A stretch of DNA of 64,000 nucleotides from an uncultured Ectothiorhodospiraceae bacterium (GCA_964439835.1 CAYTPQ010000015.1:310-64309), one strand, 5' to 3'. Counted from the first letter of the stretch, positions 11,625-52,090 are shown. A program made the numbers and translations. The notes: generated by a model from the letters alone, not told the origin.

Positions 11625-11643
11625 GGTCGGCCCCGGGCTGACC

Positions 11644-11856: not shown

Positions 11857-12057
11857 GTGACGGTCACCCAGTTCGAAGAGATCGCGCTCACCGTCGGCAT
11901 CGCGGCCCTCGTCGGCCTGATGTTCTTCATCGTCTACGACCTGGCGCGCAAGTCTCGCGCGGGCCGGCTGGGGACGATTGTCCTGTTCCTGGCCCTCGGG
12001 CTCGGCGTTCTAGGGTTCCTCGCGAAGACCCTGTTCCAGTTCACGCTCGGTCTCTGA
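11857..12057 (+). CDS. DUF2788-family small membrane protein
   Basis: 66 aa, two TM helices, family-like motif IVYDLARKSRAGRLGTIVLFLALGLG. Confidence 0.8.
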   Translation: MTVTQFEEIALTVGIAALVGLMFFIVYDLARKSRAGRLGTIVLFLALGLGVLGFLAKTLFQFTLGL

Positions 12058-14894: not shown

Positions 14895-15077
14895 GGAAGG
14901 TCCTCCCGCGGCACGGCCGTCGCTGCGGTGGCCGCCCGCTCGAACAGCGCCGGATCGGCTCCGCACCGCGCCTGTCCCGGGGGGTGTGGAGCCACCCGCT
15001 GCGCCCGATAGGTCCGCGGGAGCGGTGACCTACGCCGGTCTGCCGGCGCTGAGGCCGCCGCTCCCTCGGAGTAGCCT

Positions 15078-15150
15078 CATCCCTGGAGGCATGGAGCCCC
15101 CGGGCGGGCCGAGTCCAGCGCTCGCCCCGGGGCTCCATGCCTCTCGGATG
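15078..15150. repeat. Long intergenic hairpin between fdhB and fdhI
   Basis: GAGGCATGGAGCCCCCGGG (15086-15104) pairs almost perfectly with CCCCGGGGCTCCATGCCTC (15125-15143), extended by CATCC/GGATG. Confidence 0.6.
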
Positions 15151-15156
15151 GCATGG

Positions 15157-15741
15157 TCAGCCCTTCTTGCCGTAGGCAGCGCCCCAGCCGAAGGAGAAGC
15201 CGGCGGCGCCCCGGTAGGCCACCCGCTGCCGGAAGATGTCGGAGACCACGTCGCCGTCGCCAGCCAGGAGGGCCTTGGTGGAGCACATCTCCGCGCAGAG
15301 CGGGAGCTTCCCCTCGGATAGCCGATCGCGCCCGTACTGGCGCACACCGTCCGCCCCCTCGACCGGTCCGCCGGCGCAGAAGGTGCACTTGTCCATCTTG
15401 CCCCGGGAGCCGAAGGCGCCACCGGCCGGGAACTGCGGTGCCCCGAACGGGCAGGCGTAGAAGCAGTACCCGCAGCCGATGCAGATGTCCTTGTTGTGCA
15501 GTACCACGCCGTCGTCGGTCTGGTAGAAGCAGTCGACCGGGCAGACCGCCATGCACGGGGCATCCGAGCAGTGCATGCAGGCCACCGAGAGCGAGCGCTC
15601 GCCGGGCGAGCCGTCCTTGATGGTCACCACCCGGCGCCGGTTGACGCCCCAGGGGATCTCGTGCTCGTTCTTGCACGCCGTCACACACGCGTTGCACTCG
15701 ATGCAGCGCTCCGCGTCACACAGGAACTTCATGCGGGCCAT
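15157..15741 (-). CDS. fdhB: Formate dehydrogenase iron-sulfur (beta) subunit
   Basis: Four 4Fe-4S Cys groups (CIECNAC, CMHCSDAPC, CIGCGYC, KCTFC). Confidence 0.93.
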   Translation of the reverse strand: MARMKFLCDAERCIECNACVTACKNEHEIPWGVNRRRVVTIKDGSPGERSLSVACMHCSDAPCMAVCPVDCFYQTDDGVVLHNKDICIGCGYCFYACPFGAPQFPAGGAFGSRGKMDKCTFCAGGPVEGADGVRQYGRDRLSEGKLPLCAEMCSTKALLAGDGDVVSDIFRQRVAYRGAAGFSFGWGAAYGKKG

Positions 15742-37009: not shown

Positions 37010-37585
37010 ATGAAGACTCGACTTGCCCCCGCTCTCGCCTTCGCCCTCGTCGCCGCCGCGGCGCCCGCTCAGGGCGCCGACTACGTCATCGACACCAAGG
37101 GCGCCCACGCCTTCATCCAGTTCAAGATCAGCCACCTTGGCTATAGCTGGCTGCTCGGGCGCTTCAACGACTTCGGCGGCACCTTCTCCTACGACGAGAA
37201 GAACCCGGCGGCCGCGAAGGTGGAGGTGACGATCAAGACCGCCAGCATCGACTCGAACCACGCCGAGCGCGACAAGCACTTGCGCGGCAAGGACTTCCTC
37301 GACGTGGAGAAGTACCCGACCGCGCGCTTCGTCAGCACCGCCTACGAGCCGAAGAGCGAGGGCAAGGCCGTGCTGAAGGGCGATCTGACCCTGCACGGCG
37401 TCACCAAGCCCGTCGCCATCGACGTCGAGCACATCGGCGCCGGCCCCGACCCCTGGGGCGGCCAGCGCCGCGGCTTCGCCGGCACCACCACACTGACGCT
37501 GAAGGACTTTGGCATCGACTACGACCTGGGCCCCGCCGCCCGCCAGGTCGAGCTGTTCCTGTCGGTGGAGGGGATACAGAAGTAG
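37010..37585 (+). CDS. yceI: YceI-family polyisoprenoid-binding periplasmic protein
   Basis: Signal peptide, [44 protein letters not shown]. Confidence 0.92.
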
Positions 37586-37657
37586 GTCGGATGGCCCAAG
37601 CGGTTCTGGGCCCCCGGATGTGCGATAGTACGGGGGCGCCGGACCGAGACCCGAGTC

Positions 37658-37810
37658 ATGAGCGAAGGTCGATGCCCCTTCAAAGCCAAGTGCCCCCACA
37701 GTGAGGCCTGCAAGGACCACACGTGGTTCTGCGTATGGGTCTTCTGGGCGGTACCGGTGGCCGCGCTGGCAGTGGTCACCTATCTGATGTGGCAGCTGGT
37801 CGCGGCTTGA
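37658..37810 (+). CDS. Small Cys-rich membrane peptide (50 aa), not in the ORF track
   Basis: Translated by hand: MSEGRCPFKAKCPHSEACKDHTWFCVWVFWAVPVAALAVVTYLMWQLVAA. No strong RBS. Confidence 0.5.
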   Translation: MSEGRCPFKAKCPHSEACKDHTWFCVWVFWAVPVAALAVVTYLMWQLVAA

Positions 37811-37842
37811 CCCCGGCTGGGTACGGATCGATCCCCCTCGTC

Positions 37843-37868
37843 GTCGTTCCGGCGAAGGCCGGAACCCA
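37843..37868. repeat. Single REP-like unit, family A
   Basis: GTCGTTCCGGCGAAGGCCGGAACCCA, the reverse-complement form of the family A core. Confidence 0.6.
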
Positions 37869-38125
37869 TTGAAGCCAGCAGCCGGCCCCTGTTGGAGCGT
37901 CCCGCCTCGGGGCAGGCGACCCCCAGCCTTGCCGGGGGACTCGCGTCGTCGCCACTCCCTGTCCGAATCCTTCGACCGGCCTGTAGGAGATTCTTGACGC
38001 ATGGCCCGGCTAGCTACTATTCGAAAAGATTCAATGGGTTGCTGATTGGGCCCCGGCTTGACCCCCGGGTGCCGCGGCGCTAGAAAGGCCTCCGAGACGG
38101 TGGCACGGCTTCCAGGGAGGGGACC

Positions 38126-40252
38126 GTGGATAGGGCAGAGGCGGGCGGGTTGGACCCCGCATTCCCGTGTGTCGCGCTGGTGGCCCGGTTGCACGGCGTG
38201 GTTGCCGACCCGGCGGCGCTGTCGCATGAGTTTCCCCTGCCGGATCGGCCGGCCGGTCCGGCGGAGGTGCTCCAGGCGCTGAAGTCCCTGGGGCTGCGGG
38301 CGCGGCGGTTCACCGCCGACCCCACGGCCCCTGGCCGGTTGCCGCTGCCCGCCATCGGCCTGTCGCGGGAGGGTAGCTGGTTCGTCCTCGCCCAGTCCGA
38401 CGGCGACCGCGTGCTGGTTCAGGACCCTGCCACGCCCGGACCCGAGGTCGTGGACACTGCCACCCTCGCCAACCGCTGGGACGGGCAGGTCATCCTGGTC
38501 ACCCGGCGCGCGGGGCTGACCGGCGAGCCGCTGCGCTTCGGCCTGCGCTGGTTCGTGCCCACGCTGCTGAAGTACCGCGGCCTGCTCGGCGAGGTGCTGG
38601 CGGCCTCGTTCTTCCTGCAGCTGTTGGCGTTGGCCACGCCGTTGTTCTTCCAGGTCGTGGTGGACAAGGTCCTGGCGCACCGGGGGCTGACGACCCTGGA
38701 CGTGCTAGCGGTGGGGCTGCTCGCCGCCTCGATCTTCGAGGCCCTGCTCGGCGGCCTGCGCACCTACCTCTTCGCCCACACCACCAGCCGTATCGACGCC
38801 GAGCTGGGTGCTCGGGTCTTCCGTCACCTGCTCGCCCTGCCCATGGCCTACTTCGACGCCCGGCGGGTCGGCGATTCGGTCGCGCGGGTGCGCGAGCTGG
38901 AGCCGGTGCGCGCGTTCCTCACGGGATCCTCCCTCACCCTGGTGCTGGACCTGCTGTTCACGGGCGTGTTCCTCGCGCTGATGTGGACCTACAGCGCGAC
39001 CCTGACCGGCGTTGTGTTCGCGAGTCTGCCGGCCTACGCCCTGCTCTCGGCGGGGATCACGCCGGCGCTCCGGGCCCGGGTCGAAGAGCGCTTCAGCCGC
39101 GGCGCCGAGAACCAGGCGTTCCTGGTCGAAGCGATGGCCGGAATGGAGACCCTGAAGGCCATGGCCGTCGAGCCCCACTTCCGCCGCCGGTGGGAGGATC
39201 AGCTCGCCGCCTACGTCCGGGCGTCGTTCCGGGCTGGGCAGCTCGGCAACCTGGCCGGCCAGGCGGCGGGGCTGGTGGGCAAGGTGGTGACCGTCGCGAC
39301 CCTGTGGCTCGGCGCGCGCCTGGTGCTGGACGGGGCGCTCAGCGTCGGCGAGCTGGTGGCCTTCAACATGCTGGCCGGGCGGGTGAGCGGGCCGGTCCTG
39401 CGGCTGGTGCAGCTCTGGCAGGACGTGCAGCAGGTGCGGGTGTCGGTCGAGCGGCTGGGGGACGTACTGAATGCCCCGGCGGAGGCCTCGGCAGGGGCGA
39501 CGGGCTCCCGTCCCCGCATTGCCGGCCGGGTCCAGCTCGACCACGTGGGCTTCCGCTACCGTCCCGACGGCCCCCTGGTGCTGGAGGACGTGAGCCTGGA
39601 GGTCGCGCCGGGCGAGGTGGTCGGCGTGGTTGGCCCCTCGGGCTCCGGCAAGAGCACGCTCGCGCGCCTGGTGCAGCGCCTGCACGTGCCGGAGCGCGGG
39701 CGGGTCCTGGTCGACGGCGTGGACCTGGCCCAGGTCGACCCGGCGTGGCTGCGCCGGCAGGTGGGGGTGGTTCTACAGGAGAACGTCCTCTTCAACCGAT
39801 CGGTGCGCGAGAACATCGCGCTGGCCGACCCCGGCATGCCGCTGGAGCGGGTGGTCCACGCCGCGCGCCTGGCGGGCGCCCACGAGTTCATCCTGGCGCT
39901 GCCCCGGGGCTACGACACGGTGGTCGCCGAGCAGGGGCGCTCACTGTCCGGCGGCCAGCGTCAGCGCATCGCCATCGCCCGGGCGCTCGCGACCGACCCC
40001 CGGATCCTGATCTTCGACGAGGCCACCAGCGCCCTCGACTACGAGAGCGAGCGGGTGATCCAGGCCAACATGAAGTTCATCGCCCGGGGCCGGACGGTGA
40101 TCGTGATCGCCCACCGGCTGAGCGCGGTGCGCCAGGCGGACCGCATCGTGGTGGTCGACCGGGGGCGGGTGGTCGAGGTGGGACCCCACGCGGAGCTGGT
40201 GCGGGCGGGGGGCCGCTACGCCAGCCTCTACGCCTACCAGACGGCGGGGTGA
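38126..40252 (+). CDS. hlyB: Type I secretion ABC transporter with C39-like domain (HlyB family)
   Basis: N-terminal C39-like domain, PLFFQVVVDKVL, GPSGSGKST, LSGGQRQR, IFDEATSALDYESE. Confidence 0.93.
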   Translation: MDRAEAGGLDPAFPCVALVARLHGVVADPAALSHEFPLPDRPAGPAEVLQALKSLGLRARRFTADPTAPGRLPLPAIGLSREGSWFVLAQSDGDRVLVQDPATPGPEVVDTATLANRWDGQVILVTRRAGLTGEPLRFGLRWFVPTLLKYRGLLGEVLAASFFLQLLALATPLFFQVVVDKVLAHRGLTTLDVLAVGLLAASIFEALLGGLRTYLFAHTTSRIDAELGARVFRHLLALPMAYFDARRVGDSVARVRELEPVRAFLTGSSLTLVLDLLFTGVFLALMWTYSATLTGVVFASLPAYALLSAGITPALRARVEERFSRGAENQAFLVEAMAGMETLKAMAVEPHFRRRWEDQLAAYVRASFRAGQLGNLAGQAAGLVGKVVTVATLWLGARLVLDGALSVGELVAFNMLAGRVSGPVLRLVQLWQDVQQVRVSVERLGDVLNAPAEASAGATGSRPRIAGRVQLDHVGFRYRPDGPLVLEDVSLEVAPGEVVGVVGPSGSGKSTLARLVQRLHVPERGRVLVDGVDLAQVDPAWLRRQVGVVLQENVLFNRSVRENIALADPGMPLERVVHAARLAGAHEFILALPRGYDTVVAEQGRSLSGGQRQRIAIARALATDPRILIFDEATSALDYESERVIQANMKFIARGRTVIVIAHRLSAVRQADRIVVVDRGRVVEVGPHAELVRAGGRYASLYAYQTAG

Positions 40253-40253
40253 C

Positions 40254-41564
40254 GTGAGACGGAACGGCACCGAGGCGTTCCTCCCGGCCCTGCTGGAGGT
40301 CGAGACCGCGCCGCCGCACCCGCTCGCGCGCGGGACGGCGCTCGCCATCGCACTGCTGCTGGTCGCGGCGGTGACCTGGGCGAGTGTCGGGCGGGTGGAC
40401 CAGGTGGCGGTGGCCCCGGGCAAGCTCGTCCCCAGGGGCGAGGTGAAGCCCGTGCAGGTCGCCGAGCAGGGCGTCGTCCGGGCGGTCCGGGTGGCGGAGG
40501 GGGAGCGGGTCCGGGAGGGGCAGGTCCTGCTGGAGCTCGACCCGACCGATGCGGAGGCGGACCGCGACCGGCTGGGCCACGAGCTCGCGAGCGCGCGGCG
40601 GGAGCGGGCGCGTCTCGCGGCGCTCTGGGGGCAGGTCGGCGGCGGGCCGCCGGCTGCGGTGCCAGGGATCGAGGCTGGGGGGCTCGACTACGCCCGGCTG
40701 GACAGCGAGATCGCCGCGCACCGGGCCGAGGTCCGGGTCCACGCCGAGGAGGCACGCCGGGCCCGGGCGGAGCGGGCGGCGCTGTCCGAACGGGTGGCGG
40801 GGCTGGAGGCGAGCGTCCCGCTGCTGGCGCGCCGGGTGGAGGCGACCCGCCGCCTGGCCGAGGGCAAGGTTGCCTCCGAGCACGCCTACCTGGAGATCGA
40901 GCAGGCGCGGGTCGAGTCCGAGGGGGAGCTGCGGGCCCAGCGGGCGCGCCTGGGGGAGCTGGAGGCGGCGGTGCGGCTGGCGGAGGAGCGCCAGGCGGCG
41001 CTGGAGGCGGGTTTCAGCCGTGACCTCCTGGCGCGGCTCCAAGAGGCGGACCGCCGGGCGTCGGGGCTCGAAGAGGAGTGGCGCAAGGCCGAGCACCGGC
41101 TGGGGCTGCGGACCGTGCGCGCGCCGGTGGGCGGCCTCGTGCAGCAGCTCGCCGTCTCCGGGCCGGGCGCGGTCGCCGCCCCGGCGCCGCCGGTGCTGGT
41201 GGTGGTGCCGGACGGCGTGGAGGTCGAGGTCGAGGCGCGGCTCGCCAACCGCGACGTGGGGTTCGTGCGCGAGGGGCAGGCGGCGGTGGTCAAGCTCGAG
41301 GCCTTTCCCTTCACCCGCTTCGGGACGATACAGGGCACGGTGACCCGAGTGTCCGCCGACGCGGTGGCCGACGAGCGTCAGGGGCTCACCTACGCCATGC
41401 GCGTCGCGCTGGGCGCCCAGCACCTGGACGTGGGTGGGGCGGCGGTGGCGCTTGCGCCCGGCATGGCCGCGGCGGTCGAGGTCAGGACCGGCGAGCGGCG
41501 GCTCATCTCTTTCTTCCTGGAGCCGCTCCTCCGGTACCGGGACGAGAGCCTGCGGGAGCGATGA
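40254..41564 (+). CDS. hlyD: Type I secretion membrane fusion protein (HlyD family)
   Basis: FLPALLEV, TM helix, coiled coil, VRAPVGG, DVGFV, KLEAFPFTRFG, EVRTGERRLISFF. Confidence 0.92.
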   Translation: MRRNGTEAFLPALLEVETAPPHPLARGTALAIALLLVAAVTWASVGRVDQVAVAPGKLVPRGEVKPVQVAEQGVVRAVRVAEGERVREGQVLLELDPTDAEADRDRLGHELASARRERARLAALWGQVGGGPPAAVPGIEAGGLDYARLDSEIAAHRAEVRVHAEEARRARAERAALSERVAGLEASVPLLARRVEATRRLAEGKVASEHAYLEIEQARVESEGELRAQRARLGELEAAVRLAEERQAALEAGFSRDLLARLQEADRRASGLEEEWRKAEHRLGLRTVRAPVGGLVQQLAVSGPGAVAAPAPPVLVVVPDGVEVEVEARLANRDVGFVREGQAAVVKLEAFPFTRFGTIQGTVTRVSADAVADERQGLTYAMRVALGAQHLDVGGAAVALAPGMAAAVEVRTGERRLISFFLEPLLRYRDESLRER

Positions 41565-41655
41565 GTGCCGGCAACCCATACCCCCCCATGCCGAGGGCTG
41601 GGGTCGGGCCTCCGCGGGGGGAACGCCGGTGCCCGGGTTAACCCGACGCAGGGTT

Positions 41656-41682
41656 CTGGGTTCCGGCTCTCGCCGGAGTGAC
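41656..41682. repeat. REP-like unit, family A
   Basis: CTGGGTTCCGGCTCTCGCCGGAGTGAC between hlyD and the next gene. Confidence 0.6.
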
Positions 41683-41725
41683 GACAGCGGTCTGTTCGGG
41701 CGTTCCGCCCGGTGAGTGCGCGCAC

Positions 41726-42982
41726 ATGCGGTCAGACGACAAGGACGGAAGCACGGAGGCTCGCGGCACGACCGGCCGGCCAGCCTCCCCCGGCAGGGCC
41801 GAGGAGATTGAGCGGGACCCGGTGCGGGGCTCGAGCGTCTGGCGGGATTCCCTGCGCGCGGTTCCGAAGAGCGTCTGGTTCAGCGTGGCCGTCCTCGCCA
41901 TCGCCGCCCTGGCGTTCGGCGTAAAGCGCTACCTCGACACCCGCGTCGCGTGGGGCTACACGCTGATTGATTCGAAGGTGCCGGCCGTGGATCGGCAGAT
42001 GTACTGGCTCGACAACGAGCGTGTGCTCTTTCTCGGTGGTGAACTGATTCGCGAGGGGCCGGACTTTGGAAAGTACCGAGGCGCGATGTTGATTTACGAC
42101 GTCCGAAAGCGCGAGACAACCGTCTACCGGCGTGACGTGCGAAGCCTCCTTTGCGTAGCAGACAAGCACGTGGCGTACACGGTGGACGAAGGCGGGGAAG
42201 AGAAGCGGTACGACGGGGAATTGGGGAAAGAGCTCCACATTCCCTGGAGGACCAAGCAGGAGGTGGCGGCGGCGCCAGACCTGCGGGCCAACCCGCTTAC
42301 GTGCAGACTTTTTGACCATGGCCCCTACAAGCGAGAAGGCAAAGCCGTGAAGCCGCTGCGGGACGGTGACGGTGTTCTGGAGCTAGGACCGCTCGTTCGC
42401 GAGGAGTGGTACCAGCAGAATCCCATTCGTCTGATTCGTGGTTCCGACGGGGCGGCCATCGAACTGCCCATCGAGCGGAGGCAGGCGTACCACGTGCACT
42501 ACGCGCCCTTTCGGGGCGAGTATCTCCTTATGCGTTCCCTGTATCAGCCGGCCACGATCGAGTGGAGCGGTAAGTCTTGTGAACCCATCTGGTGGCTTCG
42601 GCCGGACGGGAGCACCGAGAAGGAGTGCTTACCCTACCTACCGGTCTTGTCGCTCGGGTTCGGGCACGCGATACCATGGCGCCACGGGGTGGTTTTCTCC
42701 TATCACCGGGGTGCCGGACAGTTTGGCCCGGGGGACGGTGGACTTTACCTCTGGAGGCGCTACGGCCTCCCGCGCCGCGTTCTGCCGGGTGTCCTGAGCT
42801 ACGGAGTGCTCGGGCATCCGGTGGTATCTCCGGATGGTTGCAGAGTCGCCTTCGGTTACGCACAGAACATGAGTCAGAACAGGGTGCCGGAGCGTACCCT
42901 GAGGGTGCTGGAGCTGTGTCAAGGAGACCATGCGAATGGACAGGGAAGTCCTGAATCAGATCGCGTTACACGCAAGCCGTGA
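41726..42982 (+). CDS. Membrane-anchored protein of unknown function with a TolB/PD40-like motif; candidate immunity protein
   Basis: TM anchor VWFSVAVLAIAALAFGV, beta-rich domain ending PVVSPDGCRVAF; overlaps the RTX gene start; visibly more A/T-rich than its flanks. Confidence 0.65.
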   Translation: MRSDDKDGSTEARGTTGRPASPGRAEEIERDPVRGSSVWRDSLRAVPKSVWFSVAVLAIAALAFGVKRYLDTRVAWGYTLIDSKVPAVDRQMYWLDNERVLFLGGELIREGPDFGKYRGAMLIYDVRKRETTVYRRDVRSLLCVADKHVAYTVDEGGEEKRYDGELGKELHIPWRTKQEVAAAPDLRANPLTCRLFDHGPYKREGKAVKPLRDGDGVLELGPLVREEWYQQNPIRLIRGSDGAAIELPIERRQAYHVHYAPFRGEYLLMRSLYQPATIEWSGKSCEPIWWLRPDGSTEKECLPYLPVLSLGFGHAIPWRHGVVFSYHRGAGQFGPGDGGLYLWRRYGLPRRVLPGVLSYGVLGHPVVSPDGCRVAFGYAQNMSQNRVPERTLRVLELCQGDHANGQGSPESDRVTRKP

Positions 42983-45900
42983 GTCCTACGGACACGATAA
43001 CGATCTGTTGCCGGCTGAAGGATTCATCCGCCGGACGGATCTGAGCATCGTCGACAGTGGCACTGGCCTACGCGCCAGTGTGTATCAGCGCGAGCTTCGC
43101 GACGGCGAAGGCCGCCCTCTAGGGAAGTTCGATTACGTCGTCGCCTTCGCCGGAACCGAAGACTGGCAGGATGCGTACGCGGACATCCGGCTGGGTTGGG
43201 ACCAGTGGGGGATGAGCCGCGACGCGCTCCTCGACAAACTGGCCGGTCTATCTTCCTCAGGAACTATCCACTTCACCGGCCACTCCCTCGGTGGTGCGCT
43301 CGCCCAGTATGCGGCCTACGAGTTCAGCCACTCCCATCGAGAGTTCCTCAGGAGTCAGTTTCTGCCGGTTGTGCCTCCCGACATCACCCTCACCACCTTC
43401 AACGCCCTCGGCGGCATGGATGCGCTGGAGGAGCATTCTGGGGAGCTCGCGGGCGGCGCGCTTCCACACTACGACCCCGAGGTCTTCGCCGGCATCGACA
43501 CCGCGCACTTTTTCGTGCGCGGCGACCTGGTGGCGCGGCTCGGCGGCGGGCACGTGGGCGGCAACACCCAGGAGTTGGTGTTGGGCACGGAGTCCGCGCC
43601 CACGCTCGACTTCCTGACCGCCCACGCCCTCGACACGATCTACGCCGCGGCCTCGGGGCCTGACGGCTTGCCGGGGCTGTTCGCAAACGCCTGGCCGATT
43701 GCCCCCGCCTATCTCGACGTCTCCACCAGCCAGCGGCTGGCTGCGGCCCTGGGCGACCTGTTCAACGACAGCGACTTCCGGGGCCTGGAGCCCGGCCTCC
43801 GGCTTGCCGGCGGCGTGGTGCTCGCCCTGGCCATGGCGCCGGCCGCGGAGGTGGAGGGGCTGGCGAACGCCCTGGTCGAGAACTTCAAGCTCTCGGGCGG
43901 GTACGACGACCTGAGCTTCCGGTCGCGCTTCGGGCTGTTGGCGCTCTCCAACTGGGGGCGGGTGCAGGATGCGATCAGCCGGATCGGGGGCACCGTCGCG
44001 CAGGCGACGTTCGTCGGGGTGGGCGCGACCCTCGTTCTGGCCGCCGGCATCGCCGACCTGGTGGGCTCCGGTGACCGCGCGGCCACCGAGTCCCTGCTCA
44101 AGGTCCTGGCGATGGGGTTCCGACCGGACACCTCCTTCGACGAGGAGATCGCCGGTTTGGTCGCCGGCCCGCGCGGTGACCCGCTGCTGCGTACCGGGCT
44201 CTGGGTCGCGGCGGTCGAAGGGGCGTCCTCGGAGACCTTTGTCAGCCGGGTCGGCGCCGTGCTGCACGGTCTGGGGCTGGGCGAAGACGAGGCGGCGCGG
44301 CAGGCGCTGCACGAAAAGCTGGCGGTACCCGAGGACTGGCTGGACGGGTCCCTCCGGTTTCTCTACGACCGAGCCCGGGTCGTGGGACTGGACCCGCTGG
44401 TCTTCGGCCTCGACCTGGCCCGTGCGGCCGTGGAGGCGGCCCCAGCGTTCCTGGGTGATCGGGGCGCTGGGATGACGGCGGAGCTGTCCGAGACCCTCGG
44501 CCACCACGTGGTGGGCCTGGCGGCGGGCGTCGCCGACGGCGTGGCGGGGTATCGCATCGACGACCCGCGCAGCCTGCTGTCCCGTCCCGACGGCGTTACT
44601 GCGGCCGACGTGGACCGCTACCGCGACGTCATCACCCAGCATCTCGGCGCGCTCGGCGGAAGCGGCGAGTCCCTGCGTGGGGCGCTGGCCGACGCACGCG
44701 ACCTGCTGGAGCGGGCGGGGCAGGGCATCCAGGTCCGTCCGAGCACGGACGGCCAGGGCCTCGAAGGGGGGCTGGAGGCGCTGGCGGCCGCGGACCCGGC
44801 GCTGGTGGTGCCGTTCACCGTCACGTTGCGGTATGCCGCCCCGGCGGGCGGTCAGGCGATGCGGCTGACCCTGGACGGCGCCGCTGGCGAGCCGATCCAG
44901 CTGCTCGGCGCCTCGGTCGAGGCGCTCGCGGAAGGCGCCGGCGAGACGGGCAACCCCCAGTGGCTGCTGACCGTCGCCGAGGGCGCAACCAGCGCCACGG
45001 TCTTCGCCGTTTTCACCGGAGGCCTCGACCGCTTCCCCGTGCCCGCCTACAGCCTCGGCGCGGCGCTGACGACCGCCGCGGGCGTCCAGACCCACGACGG
45101 CGCCGTCCTCGGCGACGTCGCCGTGACGGGTCCTGCGGCCCCGGGCGCCGCGGTCTACCTGACGAGCGACGCCGAGGACTACGACCTGCAGCCGGCCGCA
45201 TTCGCCGGTACACCGGCGGTGTTCGCCGACGCCGGCGACGACCGCGTGAGCCTGTGGGGCCCGGCGCCGGCCGGAGCCGTGGTCCACGGGGGCTCGGGCG
45301 CCGACCTGATCGACGCGCGCTTCCTCCAGCTGACCGTGGCCGACGCAGGCGCCGAGCTCCAGGGCGGCACTCAGAACGACGTGCTCCAAGGCAGTCCGGG
45401 ACGGGACCGCCTGGACGGCGGCGCGGACCACGACGTGCTCTTCGGCTACGAAGGGGCGGACTGGCTCCAGGGTGGGGCGGGTAACGACTGGCTCGATGGC
45501 GGGGAGGGGGCCGACCTGGTCCTGGACCGGGACGGCGGCGACGTCCTCCTCGGCGGGGCCGGCGCCGACTGGGTGTCCGGTGGTCCGGGGGAAGACCGTA
45601 TCTTCGGCGACGCCACCGGGCTCTTCGGGCTCTGGGACGGCGCCACCCGCACCGTGCGGGCGCCAATCGCCGACGACCTCTTCGCCGCCGGCGACTACGG
45701 CATCGTGCTCGAGGCCGACTCTGCCGCCGCGGGTGCGGACGTGCTCGAAGGCGGCGACGGCCGGGACAGCCTGTTCGGCGGCCTGGGCGCGGACAGCCTG
45801 CGGGGCGGCGCCGACGCCGACCACCTGGAAGGGGAAGGCGGCGGCGACCGCCTCGACGGGGGCGACGGCGACGACGTCCTCTGGGGTGATCGCTCTCCGG

Positions 45901-48900
45901 CGACGGTGGCCGAGGACGGGCGTGTCCTCTACCGCGCCACAGTTGCCGGCGGCGAAGTCCGCTACCACTGGCGCAGCCACGCCGCGGGGGCCGACGTCGC
46001 CGGTAACGACACCCTGATGGGCGGCGAGGGGCGGGACGCCCTCTTCGGCCAGGAGGGCGACGACTCGCTGGACGGGGGCGGTGGGGACGACCGGCTCGAA
46101 GGCGGGCCGGGCAACGACGTGCTGACGGGAGGGCCCGGCGCCGACTACCTGACGGGGGGCGAGGGCGACGACGTCTACCGCTTCACGGCCGGTGACGGCG
46201 CCAACCTGGTCGAGGACGAGGGCGGCGTGGACGCCATCGCCTTTGCCGTAGGCCTCTCCTCGGACTCCGTCACCGCGACTTGGGTCGGAGAGGACCTGGC
46301 CCTCACGGACGCCGACGGCACCCTGCAGGTTCGGCTGCCGGGCTGGTTCTCCCAGGGGCCGTCGATCGAGCGGGTCGAGTGGGCCGACGGCACGCACTGG
46401 ACCGCGGAATTCCTGACCGCCCAGGCGTTGCGCCAGGCCGGCACCGACGCGGACGACGTGCTCGACGGCCACGACGGGCTGGGCGACGTCCTCGAGTCCG
46501 GTGCCGGCAACGACCGGCTGCGCGGGCGCGGCGGCGCCGACGTCCTGCGCGGGGGGGCTGGCGCGGATTGGCTGGACGGCGGCTCCGGCAACGACACGCT
46601 GGACGGGGGTGACGGCGCGGACCTCTACGTCCTCGGCGCCGGCGACGACCTGGTGGCCGACGCCGGCCCGACCGGCGAGGTGAACCGGATCCGGCTTGGC
46701 CCAGGGACCGTCTCGGCCGACCTGACCGCCACCCGCTCGGGCGAAGACCTGGTGCTGCGGTGGTCCGCGCCGGACGTGCCGGCGGGGGACGGCGATGGCG
46801 CGGACGCGGGCGAGGGGGCGGTGACGGTCCAGGGCTACTTCGCAGACCCGGGGCGGTGGGCCCTGGAGCTTGCGAGCGGTGCGCCGGTCTCCGTCGCCGA
46901 GCTGCTGGGCGAGCTGCCGGCGCCGAGTGACGCCCTGCGCCCGGTCTGGGAGACCTTCGAGCAGGCCCAGTACGCGCGGCTGACTCGCGAGGCGGACTAC
47001 GGCAACCGGGTAGGGGCGGGGATCGACGCGCCGCTCGACACCGAGGTGGCCATCGTCCACTACGCCTTCGAGACCCCGCCGTTCCAACGGTTTGAGACCG
47101 AAGACGGCTGGTACTTCCCCGACATGCCGGGGGCGTACGCCGGAAAGGGGTCCTACTGGAGCTGGACCGGCACACCGCCGGGTACCCGCTTCGAGTACCG
47201 GGTCGAGGTGGTGACTTCGCAGGTGGCCGCGCCGGGTGGGGAGGTCGAGCGCGCCCAGGCGGTGTCCTACGAGGAGTCCGAGCGCCGCGGCGAGCTGGTG
47301 CTGTCCTCCCGCGGCGGTTTCTGGACCGACCCCGACGGCTCCGGTGTGTCCTACCGCCAGGCGGTCGATGTTGCCTACGCAGGTGAGGGCTCGCGGGGCT
47401 CGGGTCTCGCCGTGGTCGTCCCCGTTTCTACCGAGACGGCCCGGCTGCAGCGGATCCTGGGCACCGACGGCGACGACCGGGTGCCCGCGGTCTACGGCAG
47501 TGCCCCGAGCCTGATCGACGGCCGCGGCGGGGACGACTTCCTCTCGGGGGGCGAGGGCGTGTCCGACCTGCTCCACGGCGGCGAAGGCCAGGACACATTG
47601 GAGGGCCTCGGTGGGGGCGACGTCCTCATCGGCGGCGCCGGCAGCGACCTGCTGCGTGGCGGGGAGGGGTCCGACACCTACCACTTCTTCGCCGGCCAGG
47701 CCGGGGTCGACGTGTTGGAAGACGACGGCCTGGCGGTCTCGCCGAGCGCGGTGAGCTGGATGCTGGAGGCGGGTCTGCCGAACGGCGAGTGGCGGGACTA
47801 CGAGGGGGTGCTCGACTACCTGCGCTGGTTGCCGGACGACCAGGCGGGCGCGCTGACGGAGTGGCTCTCTGCATGGGGACTGCCGGCCACGCCGCAGACC
47901 GATACCGTCCGGCTGGACGTCGCCGCGGATGCCGTACAGGTCGGGCGGACGGAGCACGACGGCCGTGCCGCGCTGGCGCTGCGCTGGGGGCCGGACCTGG
48001 GCGAGGGGCTGGTGGTGCCGCTGCGCGAGGTCGGCCGGGACCTGGTCGGATTCGGGGTGGAGAGCTTCGAGTTCCTGGACGCCAGCCGTTCGCTAAACGA
48101 GCTCCTGAGCGCCCTGTCGCCGCTGGCGGCCGAGTTCCCGCGCCCGGTCGGGTACTCGACGGCCTGGGTCGGAACGGTCTGGGACGACGAGGGCTGGGGC
48201 GACGCCGGCTCGGACTACCTAGCCGGGGCCGCCGGTCACGACACCCTTCGGGGCTACGACGGCGACGACTGGCTGGAGGGCGGCGACGGCAACGACCGCC
48301 TGCTGGGCGGATGGGGCAACGACGTGCTGGTCGGCGGCGAGGGGTCGGACCGGTTGATAGGCGGCCCGGGAGACGACACCTTCCTGGTCCGCGGTTTCAC
48401 GGGCGGCCGTGACCGCTTCGTCGGCGGCGCGGGGTTCGACCGCATCGTCGGCAGCCCCGATGACGATCGAATTCGCGTCAGCCGCTTTGGCCCAGAGGAT
48501 GGGATCGAGGAGATCGACGGGGCGGGGGGCGGCGATCTGCTGGCAGGCACCGCGGCCGACGACCTGATCGATCTCAGCGCCACCCGCCTGGTGGGCGGCT
48601 GGCGGGTGGACGCCGGGGCGGGGAACGACCGGCTGGTCGGCACGGCAGAGGCCGACGTCCTGATCGGAGGGGCGGGCGACGACACCCTGGCCGGAGGTCC
48701 CGGGGGAGACACCTACCGCTTCGCCCTGGGCCACGGCGCCGACGTCATCGACGAGTTGGGTGGGGGGGACGGCGTCGACCGGCTGATCCTGGGGATCGGC
48801 TTCCGGCCGGTGGACGTGGGGCTGCGCCGGGACGGCGGTGACCTCTCCCTGAGCTTCGGCGCCGGCGCGGACGGCGTGCGGGTGCTCGGCTGGTTCGACG

Positions 48901-49097
48901 ACCCCTCGCGGCGCCTGGAGCGGGTCGTGCTCGCTGACGGCGGCCGGTTGCTCGCGCGTCAGGTGGACGGCCTGATCCAGGCCATGGCCACCTTCACGGC
49001 CGGGCGCGGGGTCGACACCTGGCAGGCGGCGGCCGCACTCGCCCCCGACGATGCGGCAAGCCTGGTCGCCCCCTACTGGGGTACCGCGAGCGGTTGA
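42930..49097 (+). CDS. RTX calcium-binding T1SS substrate with N-terminal lipase/phospholipase (GxSxG) domain
   Basis: AAGGAG RBS; FAGTE, GHSLGG (43278-43295), GDLV and AHALD triad contexts; several blocks of GGxGxDxL nonapeptides; haemolysin-type C-terminal region (VDGLIQAMATF); no N-terminal signal peptide. Confidence 0.92.
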   Translation: MRMDREVLNQIALHASRESYGHDNDLLPAEGFIRRTDLSIVDSGTGLRASVYQRELRDGEGRPLGKFDYVVAFAGTEDWQDAYADIRLGWDQWGMSRDALLDKLAGLSSSGTIHFTGHSLGGALAQYAAYEFSHSHREFLRSQFLPVVPPDITLTTFNALGGMDALEEHSGELAGGALPHYDPEVFAGIDTAHFFVRGDLVARLGGGHVGGNTQELVLGTESAPTLDFLTAHALDTIYAAASGPDGLPGLFANAWPIAPAYLDVSTSQRLAAALGDLFNDSDFRGLEPGLRLAGGVVLALAMAPAAEVEGLANALVENFKLSGGYDDLSFRSRFGLLALSNWGRVQDAISRIGGTVAQATFVGVGATLVLAAGIADLVGSGDRAATESLLKVLAMGFRPDTSFDEEIAGLVAGPRGDPLLRTGLWVAAVEGASSETFVSRVGAVLHGLGLGEDEAARQALHEKLAVPEDWLDGSLRFLYDRARVVGLDPLVFGLDLARAAVEAAPAFLGDRGAGMTAELSETLGHHVVGLAAGVADGVAGYRIDDPRSLLSRPDGVTAADVDRYRDVITQHLGALGGSGESLRGALADARDLLERAGQGIQVRPSTDGQGLEGGLEALAAADPALVVPFTVTLRYAAPAGGQAMRLTLDGAAGEPIQLLGASVEALAEGAGETGNPQWLLTVAEGATSATVFAVFTGGLDRFPVPAYSLGAALTTAAGVQTHDGAVLGDVAVTGPAAPGAAVYLTSDAEDYDLQPAAFAGTPAVFADAGDDRVSLWGPAPAGAVVHGGSGADLIDARFLQLTVADAGAELQGGTQNDVLQGSPGRDRLDGGADHDVLFGYEGADWLQGGAGNDWLDGGEGADLVLDRDGGDVLLGGAGADWVSGGPGEDRIFGDATGLFGLWDGATRTVRAPIADDLFAAGDYGIVLEADSAAAGADVLEGGDGRDSLFGGLGADSLRGGADADHLEGEGGGDRLDGGDGDDVLWGDRSPATVAEDGRVLYRATVAGGEVRYHWRSHAAGADVAGNDTLMGGEGRDALFGQEGDDSLDGGGGDDRLEGGPGNDVLTGGPGADYLTGGEGDDVYRFTAGDGANLVEDEGGVDAIAFAVGLSSDSVTATWVGEDLALTDADGTLQVRLPGWFSQGPSIERVEWADGTHWTAEFLTAQALRQAGTDADDVLDGHDGLGDVLESGAGNDRLRGRGGADVLRGGAGADWLDGGSGNDTLDGGDGADLYVLGAGDDLVADAGPTGEVNRIRLGPGTVSADLTATRSGEDLVLRWSAPDVPAGDGDGADAGEGAVTVQGYFADPGRWALELASGAPVSVAELLGELPAPSDALRPVWETFEQAQYARLTREADYGNRVGAGIDAPLDTEVAIVHYAFETPPFQRFETEDGWYFPDMPGAYAGKGSYWSWTGTPPGTRFEYRVEVVTSQVAAPGGEVERAQAVSYEESERRGELVLSSRGGFWTDPDGSGVSYRQAVDVAYAGEGSRGSGLAVVVPVSTETARLQRILGTDGDDRVPAVYGSAPSLIDGRGGDDFLSGGEGVSDLLHGGEGQDTLEGLGGGDVLIGGAGSDLLRGGEGSDTYHFFAGQAGVDVLEDDGLAVSPSAVSWMLEAGLPNGEWRDYEGVLDYLRWLPDDQAGALTEWLSAWGLPATPQTDTVRLDVAADAVQVGRTEHDGRAALALRWGPDLGEGLVVPLREVGRDLVGFGVESFEFLDASRSLNELLSALSPLAAEFPRPVGYSTAWVGTVWDDEGWGDAGSDYLAGAAGHDTLRGYDGDDWLEGGDGNDRLLGGWGNDVLVGGEGSDRLIGGPGDDTFLVRGFTGGRDRFVGGAGFDRIVGSPDDDRIRVSRFGPEDGIEEIDGAGGGDLLAGTAADDLIDLSATRLVGGWRVDAGAGNDRLVGTAEADVLIGGAGDDTLAGGPGGDTYRFALGHGADVIDELGGGDGVDRLILGIGFRPVDVGLRRDGGDLSLSFGAGADGVRVLGWFDDPSRRLERVVLADGGRLLARQVDGLIQAMATFTAGRGVDTWQAAAALAPDDAASLVAPYWGTASG

Positions 49098-49294
49098 GGG
49101 TCCGGGCCGGGGCGGCGCGGACGCAGCCCCGGCCCTGGCCCGCGCCGCGCTTGCCCGGATCGCCGAGCCCTCGCGGCCGTTCGCGCCGCCCACCGACTAT
49201 CCTTTAGGCGTTGACGACCCCGTTCCGTGGCGGCGCCGCCGGTCGCGTGGGCTGACCGGGACGTGCGCCACGGCCCCACCCGGAGACGAGCGCG

Positions 49295-50398
49295 ATGAAG
49301 ATCACGTTGAGCGTCATCAAGGCCGACATCGGCTCGGTCGGCGGCCACATCTGCCCCTCGGAGGGCCTGCTCGAGTCGGTGCGGGCCTACGTGCACCGGC
49401 ACGGCGAGGGATTGCTCATCGACACCTACGTCAGCCACACCGGCGACGACATCGCCATCCTCATGACGCACACCCACGGCGCGGGCGACGAGCGGGTGCA
49501 CAAGCTCGCCTGGGGCGCCTTTCTGGAGGGCACCGCGGTGGCGAAGGCCGAGGGGCTCTACGGCGCCGGCCAGGACCTCCTGAAGGACGCCTTCTCCGGC
49601 AACGTCCGGGGGATGGGGCCGGCCGTGGCGGAACTCGAGTTCGAGGAGCGCCCGAGCGAGCCGTTCCTGTTCTTCGCCGGCGACAAGACCGACCCCGGGG
49701 CCTTCAACCTGCCGCTCTACCTGGCCTTCGTCGACCCGATGAACACCCCGGGGCTGATCCTGGCCCCGTCGATGGGCAAGGGATTCCGGTTCCTCATCAT
49801 GGACGTGGCGTATACGGAGGGCGACCGGGTCATCGAGCTGAACGCCCCGGAGGACCTCTACGCCATCGCCGCGCTGTTGCGCGACACCGAGCGCTACGTG
49901 GTCGAGTCGGTCTGGTCGCGGTCGACTGGCGAGCAGGCGGTGGTTGCCTCCACCTCGCGACTGCACAACATCGCCGGCAAGTACACCGGCAAGGACGACC
50001 CGGTGATGCTGGTGCGGGTGCAGAAGGACTTTCCCGCCACCGGCGAGATCCTGGCCCCCTACGCGCTCGGCCCCTACGTCGCCGGCTGCATGCGCGGCTC
50101 CCACCAGATGCCGCTGATGCCGGTGCCGCTCGCCTCGGGGATCAGCTACTTCGACGGCCCGCCGGTGATGAGCTGCGCCGCCTTCTCGATGCGCGACGGG
50201 CTGCTGACCGGCCCGGTGGACGCCTTTGCCCACCCGTTCTGGGACACGGTCCGCGAGCGGGTCTCCCACAAGGCCCTCGACATGCGCCGCCAGGGCTTCT
50301 TCGGCGCTGCCATGCTGCCCTGGTCCGAGCTGGAGTACACCGGGATCACCGAGAAGCTGGCTGCCCTGGATGCGCGATTCCAGGTTCGGTCTTCCTGA
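49295..50398 (+). CDS. fbp: Bifunctional fructose-1,6-bisphosphate aldolase/phosphatase (class V, archaeal type)
   Basis: IKADIGSVGGH, HTGDDI, FSGNVRGMGP, DKTDPGAFN, RLHNIAGKYTGKDDP (Tyr/Lys Schiff-base loop), MRGSH, YFDGPP. Confidence 0.93.
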   Translation: MKITLSVIKADIGSVGGHICPSEGLLESVRAYVHRHGEGLLIDTYVSHTGDDIAILMTHTHGAGDERVHKLAWGAFLEGTAVAKAEGLYGAGQDLLKDAFSGNVRGMGPAVAELEFEERPSEPFLFFAGDKTDPGAFNLPLYLAFVDPMNTPGLILAPSMGKGFRFLIMDVAYTEGDRVIELNAPEDLYAIAALLRDTERYVVESVWSRSTGEQAVVASTSRLHNIAGKYTGKDDPVMLVRVQKDFPATGEILAPYALGPYVAGCMRGSHQMPLMPVPLASGISYFDGPPVMSCAAFSMRDGLLTGPVDAFAHPFWDTVRERVSHKALDMRRQGFFGAAMLPWSELEYTGITEKLAALDARFQVRSS

Positions 50399-50561
50399 GC
50401 GGCACCCCGGGGCGCCGTGTAGCCGACCCCCGGCCCCGGTAGCTAGCGTCAGCCGGGACCGGGTTTCCTTCGGCAGGTGTGAACGTCTGCGACAGGGCAG
50501 ACGCGGATGCCGACCATCAGGGGGGCGCCAAGGGAGGCGGACAGCCCGTGGCGGACGCCGG

Positions 50562-50775
50562 TCATCCGCGCCGGTAGGTCCCCATCAGCTGGGCGCGACC
50601 GATCACGTGGCCCTCCATGGCCTTTTCCAGCTTCACCTTGGTCGGCTGGCGGAGGTCCGGCAGCACCACGTCCAGGGCGTAGAGCTTGTGGAAATAGCGG
50701 TGGCGCCCGACGGGGGGGGCCGCCGTACCCGGTGCGCTTCCAGTCGTTCACTCCCTCGCGGGTGCCGGAGGCCAC
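50562..50775 (-). pseudogene. Truncated and frameshifted YbhB/YbcL (PEBP/RKIP-like) gene
   Basis: One frame gives GVNDWKRTGYGGP; after a C8 run another frame gives PVGRHRYFHKLYALDVVLPDL...KAMEGHVIGRAQLMGTY. The GPCPP Cys and the N-terminal half are missing. Confidence 0.8.
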
Positions 50776-50815
50776 CGACTGCCTGCGCCGGGGCGGCGAC
50801 GTACGCCGCGCCTCC

Positions 50816-51232
50816 TCAGCGCAGGACCTCGGCCAGCCGGCGCACCGCCGTTCCCGGGTCGCCCTCCAGCCACTCGGCCATCGCCTCGGCGCCGGCGTCG
50901 TGGTCCGGCTGGCCCTCGGGCTCGGCCGCGCGCGTCATCGCCCGGCCGACCAGGTGGCTCACCTCCTGCTCCTGCATCTTCCGCGCTCCGCGCAGGTACA
51001 TGACCAGCACCGCCAGGGCCTCGGTCTCGCCGAGGCCGCGGCTCTCGGCCAGGGCGCCGGCCGCGCCCAGCAGGAAGGTCGCGTAGCGCTCGCGCTCGGC
51101 CGGGATGGTGAGGGTGCGGGTGTCCACCAGCGCCAGGGAGGGCCGGGTGAAGGACTCGAGCTTCGCCCGCAGCTTCTCCAGCTCCCGGGACAGGTCGGGC
51201 TTGCCGAACGTTCGCCTGAGCCAGCTCCGCAT
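50816..51232 (-). CDS. Hypothetical helical protein
   Basis: 138-aa ORF with ATG start and ordinary amino-acid composition; no motif recognised. Confidence 0.6.
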   Translation of the reverse strand: MRSWLRRTFGKPDLSRELEKLRAKLESFTRPSLALVDTRTLTIPAERERYATFLLGAAGALAESRGLGETEALAVLVMYLRGARKMQEQEVSHLVGRAMTRAAEPEGQPDHDAGAEAMAEWLEGDPGTAVRRLAEVLR

Positions 51233-51367
51233 GGATCGATACCTCGCCGGCGGTCGTGCAGGGGGGCCGCGCTTTCGTGGATACTGGGCGGGAAGTATCA
51301 GCGAAGGCGCCTTGGATCAAGGCTCGCGGGTCGGGGTATCGCGGGCATGCTGCGGGAGGAACTCGGT

Positions 51368-52090
51368 ATGGCGGCGACACAGCAGCAAGGCTTCTCGGTC
51401 GAGACCCTGGAGCTCGGCCCGATGGAGAACTTCGTCTACCTGATCCGCGACCACGCGACCGGGCGGGCGGCGGTGGTCGACCCGGCCTGGGAGCCGGAGG
51501 CGATCCTGCGGGCCGTGCGCGAGGCAGGGGTCACCCTGACCGACATCCTGCTGACCCACAGCCACCACGACCACGTGAACGGGATCGAGGCGGTGCTCGC
51601 GGCCTGCGACGCCCAGGTCCACCTGCTGAAGCCCGAGGCGCGCTTCTGGGGCTCCTACCAGGACCTGCCGACCCTGCACCACGGCGGCGACGTGATCCCG
51701 CTGGGCGAGACCGCCATCGAGGTCCTGCACACCCCGGGGCACACGCCGGGCTCGGCCTGCTATCGGGTCGGCAACGAGCTGATCGCCGGCGACACATTAT
51801 TTGTATTCGGCTGTGGGCGCTGCGACCTGCGCGGCGGCGACCCCGAGGCCATGTACGCGACCCTGAAGCGGCTGACCGAGGGCCTCCCCCCCGACACCTT
51901 GCTGCGGCCCGGGCACAACTACTCGGTGACGCCGACCACCACGCTGGCTGAGCAGCTCGCCGGCAACCCCTTCCTGCACTTCGACGACGTGCACCGCTTC
52001 GTCGCCTACCGTATGCACTACCACGACCGCCACCGCCACGAGCCCTACGGGCCGGTCGAGCGGGCAGCGGTCGACGCCCTGCGGCTCTGA
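51368..52090 (+). CDS. Metallo-beta-lactamase-fold hydrolase (glyoxalase II / persulfide dioxygenase-like superfamily)
   Basis: THSHHDH, HTPGHTPGS, GDTLF.GCGRCD, PGHNY; GGAGG RBS before ATG 51368. Confidence 0.88.
   Translation: MAATQQQGFSVETLELGPMENFVYLIRDHATGRAAVVDPAWEPEAILRAVREAGVTLTDILLTHSHHDHVNGIEAVLAACDAQVHLLKPEARFWGSYQDLPTLHHGGDVIPLGETAIEVLHTPGHTPGSACYRVGNELIAGDTLFVFGCGRCDLRGGDPEAMYATLKRLTEGLPPDTLLRPGHNYSVTPTTTLAEQLAGNPFLHFDDVHRFVAYRMHYHDRHRHEPYGPVERAAVDALRL

Follow-up and report, generated by a model that had tools for sequence, protein, structure and literature searches.

Why should the gene for a protein that probably faces the periplasm run into the start of a gene for a giant, exported lipase? 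The question is raised by a locus in a 64,000-nucleotide stretch of DNA from an uncultured Ectothiorhodospiraceae bacterium (GCA_964439835.1 CAYTPQ010000015.1:310-64309), which as a whole we call the window and whose positions are counted from its first letter. Four co-oriented genes occupy the plus strand between 38126 and 49097, namely hlyB and hlyD of a type I secretion system (T1SS), an open reading frame that we call ORF3, and a gene combining a lipase domain with repeats-in-toxin (RTX) blocks in one giant protein, called the toxin here for brevity. The original prediction, made from the sequence alone, had described this order as hlyB, hlyD, a membrane-anchored unknown and a lipase-RTX giant, which was confirmed by matches to TIGR01846 and TIGR01843, by a predicted anchor helix at residues 48-70 of ORF3 and by matches of the fourth gene to Lipase_3 and RTX models. 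Comparison with related loci shows, by computation, a strict yet non-obligatory adjacency of the ORF3 and lipase families, and likewise that ORF3 and the N-terminal two-thirds of the lipase domain are inherited and exchanged together, as a unit whose codon usage is foreign. In our judgement ORF3 is probably the cognate immunity-type partner of the T1SS-exported lipase, a reading drawn from sequence comparison. Literature searches gave no description of the ORF3-lipase pair.

Linkage and joint exchange of ORF3 and the lipase domain

The order hlyB-hlyD-ORF3-toxin recurs in seven of seven closely related loci from gammaproteobacterial metagenome-assembled genomes (MAGs) and metagenomes, where ORF3 is 63-68% identical and overlaps the toxin gene by 47-59 nt. 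More distant homologues of ORF3, with 24-32% identity and from Nitrospira, Nitrosomonas, Rhodocyclaceae and other groups, also lie directly 5' of giant genes, and the giant proteins beside them carry the same lipase domain in their first 300 residues. After removal of near-duplicates 66 distinct ORF3 copies were left, 45 of which have the lipase directly downstream, 15 do not and six are too near a contig end, giving 45 of 60 informative copies, a figure that leans upward for a reason discussed below. The hosts of the pair belong to Nitrospira and to the Alpha-, Beta- and Gammaproteobacteria. Since the order recurs in seven loci and the adjacency is seen in so many informative copies, the four-gene arrangement is not due to chance. 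Starting from the lipase side, an ORF3 homologue directly precedes all three lipase homologues that were looked up (P0011, P0019 and P0030); none precedes a distant stand-alone lipase (E 1e-4). A tblastn search of the lipase domain and ORF3 against 72,556 plasmid records gave no match.

The original prediction had also inferred a polymorphic toxin and had proposed a survey of homologous loci for swapped N-terminal domains and partners. No such swap was found: among the fetched loci each giant protein beside an ORF3 homologue carries the class-3 lipase, and neither another N-terminal domain nor another partner family appeared. A homologue search with the post-lipase region (aa 261-780) returned one close fragment and, like the other protein search, missed even the giant proteins of the fetched loci, which makes it uninformative on swapped domains. 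The toxin can be called polymorphic for its alleles, as seen in the locus pairs L001/L007 and L050/L073, but not for the type of its warhead, with a single class-3 lipase family throughout.

The exchange of such alleles can be seen from L001 and L007, which are 100% identical in hlyB, hlyD, the toxin gene beyond approximately codon 200 and the downstream genes, versus 56-89% identical over ORF3 and lipase codons 1-200, with a synonymous divergence (dS) of 0.67-0.78 there. The pair L050 and L073 from another clade shows the same pattern, its identity jumping to 95-100% at approximately lipase codon 190. The window itself carries a corresponding trace in its G+C content at third codon positions (GC3), which is 72.4% in the ORF3 periplasmic domain and 75.3% in lipase codons 1-190, compared to 91-95% in the two secretion genes hlyB and hlyD, in the remainder of the toxin gene and in the genes on either side; overall G+C content dips to 59-65% in this cassette, and L001, L004 and L007 have a GC3 island at the matching segment of ORF3 and the lipase 5' end. 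In 37 distinct pairs, ORF3 identity followed the identity of lipase aa 1-190 (Spearman rho 0.80) more closely than that of aa 191-315 (0.51), and the two lipase segments followed one another with a rho of 0.59.

ORF3 is also found without an intact lipase. An Azonexus MAG has four tandem ORF3 paralogues, 27-73% identical, amid chemotaxis, transporter and regulator genes and with neither a lipase nor a T1SS within 10 kb, and in Alphaproteobacteria solitary copies stand beside genes for an FAD oxidoreductase, a catechol dioxygenase or a thiolase. Tandem arrays of ORF3 with a truncated lipase are located 5' of a full gene in L023, L028, L062 and L084. On the Nitrospira contig L023 the order is ORF3, lipase codons 1-113, ORF3, lipase codons 1-113, ORF3 and full lipase, with the lipase fragments being 93-95% identical (dS 0.2-0.4) and the ORF3 copies 59-79% (dS 0.65-1.55). 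For every ORF3 pair compared, orphans included, the ratio of nonsynonymous to synonymous substitution rates (dN/dS) is 0.19-0.39, and judged by this ratio the compared copies are working genes under purifying selection.

Three individual loci show further peculiarities. On a contig shared by L013 and L047 (CXWL01003618.1), the ORF3-lipase pair of L013 (4193-7917) is framed by Y1 transposase genes of the IS200 type at 4193-4861 and at 7249-7917; the latter interrupts the toxin gene after 408 codons, and the RTX remainder is present as separate open reading frames (ORFs) at 8119-10035 and from 10058 onward. In L009 (1-8100) a distant ORF3-lipase pair adjoins a complete CRISPR-Cas cluster (Cas6, Cas3, Cas8b, Cas5, a Cas4-Cas1 fusion and Cas2), which is probably a coincidence. 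In L021 (9500-16400; Nitrospira sp. RSF11, SWDH01000003.1) a lipase-less ORF3 homologue is followed by three unannotated genes of 336, 551 and 350 aa, two of which have signal-peptide or lipoprotein-like N-termini; similar leader segments occur at 9561-9920, 11370-11873 and 14708-15220, a 550-aa RTX protein is encoded upstream on the opposite strand, and the stretch could be an island of immunity-type genes.

The encoded proteins and their surroundings

Table 1. Features of the hlyB-hlyD-ORF3-toxin locus, in window coordinates.
Feature	Position (nt)	Strand	Basis or remark
hlyB-type T1SS ATP-binding cassette (ABC) permease/ATPase, N-terminal C39-like domain	38126..40252	+	TIGR01846, PF00664, PF00005, PF03412
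hlyD-type T1SS periplasmic adaptor	40254..41564	+	TIGR01843, HlyD_3
ORF3, candidate immunity protein, 418 aa	41726 (ATG)..42982	+	open frame from GTG 41678; ATG 41726 is the likelier start
ORF3 membrane anchor, residues 48-70, core WFSVAVLAIAALAFGV	41867..41935	+	predicted model; homologues have a cleavable-looking signal peptide or a lipobox there
Compositionally foreign cassette: ORF3 periplasmic domain and lipase codons 1-190	41936..43505	+	GC3, G+C dip, locus comparisons
Shine-Dalgarno-like AAGGAGA for the toxin gene, within the ORF3 3' end	42921..42927	+	read from sequence; 8 nt ahead of ATG 42936
Giant lipase-RTX T1SS substrate, 2053 aa	42936..49097 (alternative ATG 42930)	+	Pfam/NCBIfam; homologues start MDREV
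Class-3 lipase/phospholipase-like domain, ~aa 1-260	42936..43715	+	PF01764, AlphaFold2 and Foldseek, family profile
Helical linker, ~aa 261-780, with hydrophobic segment aa 354-378 (nt 43995-44069)	43716..45275	+	hydrophobicity, low-confidence model helices
RTX nonapeptide repeats, seven blocks, with two HCBP_related modules (aa 785-1951)	45288..48788	+	PF00353, PF06594
C-terminal tail, presumed uncleaved T1SS secretion signal	48789..49097	+	position past the last RTX block

ORF3 (Table 1) matches no family in Pfam or NCBIfam. Its AlphaFold2 (AF2) model (predicted local distance difference test score 78.8, predicted template modelling score 0.74) has one long helix (residues 48-70) and beyond it an all-beta domain (79-396), from which we predict a cytoplasmic N-terminal tail, a single transmembrane or signal-anchor helix and an exported beta-propeller. 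The nearest solved folds in Foldseek are the propellers of TolB and S9 peptidases (E 2e-6, template modelling (TM) scores 0.25-0.39), almost all matches shown being beta-propellers, and because the TM scores are this low the model is that of a generic beta-propeller and not of a TolB orthologue. A profile search against Protein Data Bank (PDB) sequences gave a weak similarity to the acyl-peptide hydrolase propeller (E 0.007). Six cysteines are present, of which C143, C193, C372 and C398 are conserved in the family, C398 being invariant and the other three nearly so in a 51-sequence alignment. The N-termini of 157 relatives comprise 55 with a lipobox, 87 with another hydrophobic N-terminus and 15 with neither, some of the latter being truncated, so that 142 of the 157 have an export-type N-terminus (signal peptide or lipobox). 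Distant members have short signal peptides or lipoboxes in place of the anchor helix, and on the strength of the predicted helix here and these signals in the relatives ORF3 is an exported protein facing the periplasm. The cytoplasmic N-terminal extension of approximately 46 residues is common to the window and its closest MAG relative (P0002) and absent in other close relatives. The tail that overlaps the toxin gene lies beyond the last conserved cysteine and is disordered in the AF2 model. A rare family, as suggested by a word-indexed homologue search that gave 10 proteins, could be dismissed after an exhaustive profile search, which retrieved 1227 clusters with E <= 1e-3, 271 of them with E <= 1e-30, and proteins that with few exceptions measure 340-400 aa.

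The overlap between ORF3 and the toxin gene that the original prediction had noted is real, but its length of 53 nt applies to the earlier ATG 42930 and becomes 47 nt from ATG 42936. The latter is likely the start, since relatives begin with MDREVLNQ and the spacing of the AAGGAGA motif suits it better. Depending on the start, the giant protein has 2053-2055 aa. It is devoid of cysteine and strongly acidic (330 Asp and Glu versus 134 Lys and Arg), and it matches the RTX family PF00353 in 15 stretches (E 5e-82) besides two HCBP_related (PF06594) modules. We mapped 30 GGxGxD motifs in the seven blocks, the last of which ends approximately 100 aa from the C-terminus; the tail behind it we take to be the secretion signal from what is established for T1SS and from its position past the RTX blocks. 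No Pfam or NCBIfam model other than those of the RTX repeats, HCBP_related and Lipase_3 matched the protein above cut-off. The linker has no family match in the domain library scan either; its motifs LFND..F and LRLAGG reappear in distant homologues, and its helices are modelled with low confidence.

The Lipase_3 match (PF01764), which is centred on GHSLGG, is marginal, scoring 22.3 bits when the entire protein is scanned and 26.0 bits for the domain by itself, at a cut-off of 22. The AF2 model of residues 1-420 is confident across the catalytic core, and Foldseek relates it to Aspergillus feruloyl esterase A, Rhizomucor miehei lipase and plant phospholipase A1 (E to 7e-7, target TM approximately 0.5). 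A family profile found the lipase of Thermomyces lanuginosus in the PDB (4e-8) and, weakly, a chain named T6SS lipase effector (7ubz_B, E 0.057; T6SS, type VI secretion system), and a PDB search with the single sequence gave noise only (VapC, kinases, E > 0.1). The intact Ser/Asp/His context claimed by the original prediction held up: Ser117 (nt 43284-43286), Asp197 (43524-43526) and His230 (43623-43625; all numbered from 42936) are present, with Ser117 and Asp197 being invariant in 23 aligned homologues and His230 lying in an AH motif in most of them. From the model and this conservation, the domain has a class-3 fold with an intact predicted catalytic triad.

Of the secretion genes, hlyB reaches 1018 bits with TIGR01846 (cut-off 725.6), also matches ABC_membrane (PF00664) and ABC_tran (PF00005), and is 85% identical to the orthologues of L001, L004 and L007. 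Its C39-like domain (PF03412, E 1.5e-11) may be catalytically dead, as the match begins at profile position 16. The start of hlyD (TIGR01843 354 bits, cut-off 208.7; HlyD_3 also matched) lies 1 nt past the hlyB stop, and the spacer between hlyD and ORF3 measures 113-161 nt in the window versus 34 nt in L001-L007. In the distant loci L028, L067, L071, L080 and L084 an HlyB-type ABC gene is located directly 5' of ORF3 without an intervening hlyD; the T1SS gene order thus varies by clade, with the ORF3-lipase junction being kept. A scan of about 40 ORFs of the window gave no match to the OEP family of TolC-type outer membrane factors; TolC is often unlinked from T1SS operons. No HlyC-type acyltransferase gene lies between 38126 and 49097, and a promoter and terminator scan of 37400-49500 gave none above shuffled expectation.

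The operon is flanked by ordinary genes, which in the family scan are upstream a methyl-accepting chemotaxis protein, a pirin, cytochrome b561 and YceI, and downstream FBPase_3, a metallo-beta-lactamase-fold protein and 6-phosphogluconolactonase. In L001-L007 the lactonase gene directly follows the toxin; the FBPase_3 gene (fructose-1,6-bisphosphatase family PF01950) and the 527-aa metallo-beta-lactamase-fold gene that stand between the two in the window (49295-52090) are therefore an insertion or deletion difference. Positions 1-21000 include TamB (21-3728), a flavocytochrome c sulfide dehydrogenase homologue (8952-10235), a molybdopterin oxidoreductase (15759-18635), a sigma-54 activator and an MtrC-like protein (weak, under the Pfam cut-off). 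From the sulfide dehydrogenase homologue, the MtrC-like protein, TamB and the closest MAGs we infer a sulfur-oxidising gammaproteobacterium as host; among named relatives an Ectothiorhodospiraceae MAG (L015/L019) comes nearest. A 1566-aa open frame antisense to the toxin gene (43257-47957, minus strand) was treated as an artefact, as such frames are expected in repeat-rich DNA of 75% G+C.

What ORF3 may do

The comparisons support the view that ORF3 evolves as immunity genes do, occurring as orphans, in arrays and intact beside truncated toxins, being exchanged as part of a cassette and staying under purifying selection. If it is an antidote, the system might work as follows. HlyB and HlyD would export the 2053-aa RTX protein with an unlinked TolC, C-terminus leading, and the RTX blocks would fold upon extracellular calcium. 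An active class-3 lipase/phospholipase at the N-terminus would then damage membranes and kill by hydrolysis of their lipids, and the helical and hydrophobic region aa 261-780 is, as a speculation, a candidate membrane-insertion or translocation module. ORF3 would be made from the same mRNA just before the toxin, by a translational link, and would form a disulphide-bonded beta-propeller that is anchored in the inner membrane and faces the periplasm. There it may bind and block the N-terminal two-thirds of the lipase domain, and could thereby shield the producer, its kin and toxin-less bystanders from a neighbour's lipase reaching the periplasm.

Several points weigh against this reading. By the current view a T1SS substrate passes both membranes with no stop in the periplasm, so that the producer would need periplasmic protection only upon re-entry of secreted toxin; a way for an RTX protein of 2053 aa to enter the periplasm of a Gram-negative cell is not known, nor is one evident at the locus. 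The target may equally be a protist grazer, as the hosts are free-living nitrifiers and sulfur oxidisers. The 45 of 60 informative copies with an adjacent lipase are biased upward for the family of 1227 clusters, because the locus scans used patterns of lipase-linked members (alignment A1); in the broad 51-sequence alignment (A2) conservation was nowhere sufficient for such a scan, and A1 was used instead. Orphan status refers to the 10 kb around a copy, and the Azonexus and alphaproteobacterial genomes may carry the lipase elsewhere. As most loci are metagenome assemblies, the mosaics between co-occurring strains might in principle be assembly chimeras, against which weigh the breakpoint common to two clades and the GC3 island of the window at the same place.

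The tight coupling would also be explained if ORF3 were an accessory of the lipase, be it a periplasmic or surface tether like FrpD for FrpC, which the original prediction had named as its alternative, a steric foldase like Lif or an activator of the lipase N-domain, because translational coupling and co-inheritance with the N-terminal part of the lipase suit any specific binding partner. The gene order frpD-frpC is alike, with a lipoprotein as partner, and LapA-type adhesins, which are giant T1SS substrates too, keep their N-terminus in the periplasm; in a variant of this idea ORF3 might hold on to the N-terminal end of a toxin that has become stuck in the T1SS channel at the surface of the cell. 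We consider an accessory role rather unlikely, since it fits poorly with four intact, diverged paralogues lacking a lipase within 10 kb, with solitary copies amid metabolic genes and with intact copies under purifying selection beside truncated lipase genes; moreover, ORF3 has no match to the Lif family in Pfam, and no FrpD chain appears among its PDB sequence matches up to E 1. Between an accessory and an antidote stands a dual role, as reported for Tli of Enterobacter cloacae, which both activates and neutralises Tle (bioRxiv 10.1101/2023.03.28.534661; PMC10294624).

It is also conceivable that the lipase-RTX protein has eukaryotic grazers or extracellular lipids as its target, for defence or nutrition, with ORF3 protecting the producer alone, from accidental damage by its own toxin, and the system having no interbacterial role. 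To judge by their names, the hosts live in biofilms and flocs, where protists graze on them, and no route into a bacterial periplasm is evident, but neither family I.3 lipases nor host-directed RTX toxins are known with such partner genes, and allelic cassette exchange and orphan arrays in toxin-less regions imply exposure to the toxin of others. Family I.3 RTX lipases being ordinary secreted exoenzymes (PMC3034196) would suit such a function, but PueAB, the sole family I.3-type RTX esterase/lipase model that matches, scores 85 bits against a cut-off of 670, and altogether we find this explanation distinctly improbable. That ORF3 is an unrelated periplasmic beta-propeller, TolB-like in the envelope or associated with a peptidase, and a chance neighbour in the operon is suggested by its best structural matches and by its weak similarity to the acyl-peptide hydrolase propeller. 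The same structural matches have low TM scores, however, and the adjacency to one lipase domain in four bacterial groups, down to 24% identity, as well as the co-exchange with the N-terminal part of the lipase speak against it; these linkage statistics make a chance neighbour very hard to believe.

Taking ORF3 as the antidote of the lipase, we tentatively suggest an undescribed class of interbacterial weapon, although this broader proposal may well not hold. It would consist of a T1SS-exported RTX giant whose lipase warhead and beta-propeller immunity gene form one exchangeable 5' cassette, a mirror image of contact-dependent inhibition (CDI) and Rhs systems with modules stacked upstream and immunity arrays in non-producers, and Nitrospira as well as other nitrifying, sulfur-oxidising and wastewater bacteria would commonly carry it. 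If this is true, an RTX protein secreted by a T1SS, a system with very few established roles in bacterial antagonism, is able to bring an enzyme into the periplasm of a second Gram-negative cell, and the 5' end of a gene can harbour a toxin-immunity cassette. Such a weapon would also give a function to at least 1227 protein clusters without a Pfam or NCBIfam model and suggest a role for the very large RTX genes of Nitrospira and other bacteria that cycle nitrogen and sulfur in wastewater plants and sediments, habitats in which competition among strains is difficult to investigate. The L001-type and L007-type alleles are ready cognate and non-cognate pairs for the analysis of specificity.

Comparison with known systems

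With the T6SS effector-immunity pairs Tle-Tli (Tle1-4; Enterobacter cloacae) the locus shares a GxSxG alpha/beta-hydrolase lipase with a neighbouring gene whose product is periplasmic or a lipoprotein, a pair that is fixed at family level, and the occurrence of immunity-type genes as orphans and in arrays. It differs in T1SS delivery, in the lipase being the N-terminal domain of a 2053-aa RTX protein, and in the partner, a beta-propeller of approximately 330 aa without a Pfam or NCBIfam model whose gene lies upstream and overlaps the toxin start. No T6SS family, such as VgrG, PAAR or Hcp, was found among the scanned neighbouring genes in the window or the related loci, and we could not assign the pair to Tle1-4 or to a known Tli: the chain 7ubz_B is the lone trace, and ORF3 has no Pfam, NCBIfam or significant PDB sequence match. 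The original prediction had named a gene pair invariant across homologues as something that would refute it. The pair is indeed invariant at family level, but we do not count this as a refutation, because Tle-Tli pairs are likewise invariant.

FrpD-FrpC of Neisseria meningitidis resembles the locus in having the gene of a membrane-attached partner followed by that of an RTX protein, whose N-terminal part is bound by FrpD, but ORF3 is predicted to be a beta-propeller and FrpC has no lipase domain; to our knowledge neither orphan arrays nor cassette exchange have been described for FrpD. Homology to FrpD was rejected for this fold and the PDB result given above, and a Lif foldase for the lack of a Pfam match and for a model that is all-beta past the anchor helix, Lif being helical. 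Family I.3 RTX lipases (Pseudomonas TliA, Serratia LipA) and polyurethane esterases likewise combine an N-terminal lipase with C-terminal RTX repeats and an adjacent ABC and membrane fusion protein export system, but have approximately 480-620 aa, as opposed to 2053 aa and a class-3 catalytic domain (PF01764) here, and we know of no such partner gene for them. Membership in this family was rejected for the PueAB score and the class-3 domain. A cytolysin of the HlyA/CyaA type was rejected too, as the operon has no HlyC-type acyltransferase and NF033943 reaches 260 bits against a cut-off of 1000, via repeats only, and so was a MARTX toxin, given the few models that match the giant protein.

T1SS export and a dedicated immunity gene in the same cluster are also known from the antibacterial, contact-dependent bacteriocin CdzC/D-CdzI of Caulobacter (PMC5380434), the toxins of which are small glycine-zipper proteins and not RTX enzymes and whose inner-membrane CdzI is unrelated to the propeller. 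The RTX bacteriocins, such as RzcA of Rhizobium leguminosarum, are giant T1SS RTX proteins of free-living or plant-associated proteobacteria as well and are antibacterial, the mode of action of those from rhizobia and plant pathogens being uncharacterised (PMC3034196). The likeness is one of analogy, as the plasmid search gave no homology to the lipase domain or ORF3; if the pair is a toxin and its antidote, it would supply a mechanism for giant RTX bacteriocins.

The polymorphic toxins (CDI CdiA-CT/CdiI and Rhs; PMC3482391) come close in their architecture, with a large delivery body, a variable tip and an adjacent cognate immunity gene, and share stacked displaced or truncated modules, a sharp recombination breakpoint and the foreign codon usage of the variable module. 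Different toxin domain families on related bodies, another mark of polymorphic toxins, were not found among the fetched loci, where alleles of one toxin family vary and not the type of domain. As in polymorphic toxins (PMC3482391), the partner gene is exchanged with the tip and occurs in orphan modules. Of the toxin-immunity pair seen by the original prediction, the cognate, periplasm-facing partner and its immunity-like evolution (orphans, arrays and cassette exchange) thus find support, and immunity itself we infer. Compared to CDI and Rhs the arrangement is inverted, as the tip is N-terminal, the immunity gene and the stacked modules lie upstream, and export is by T1SS.

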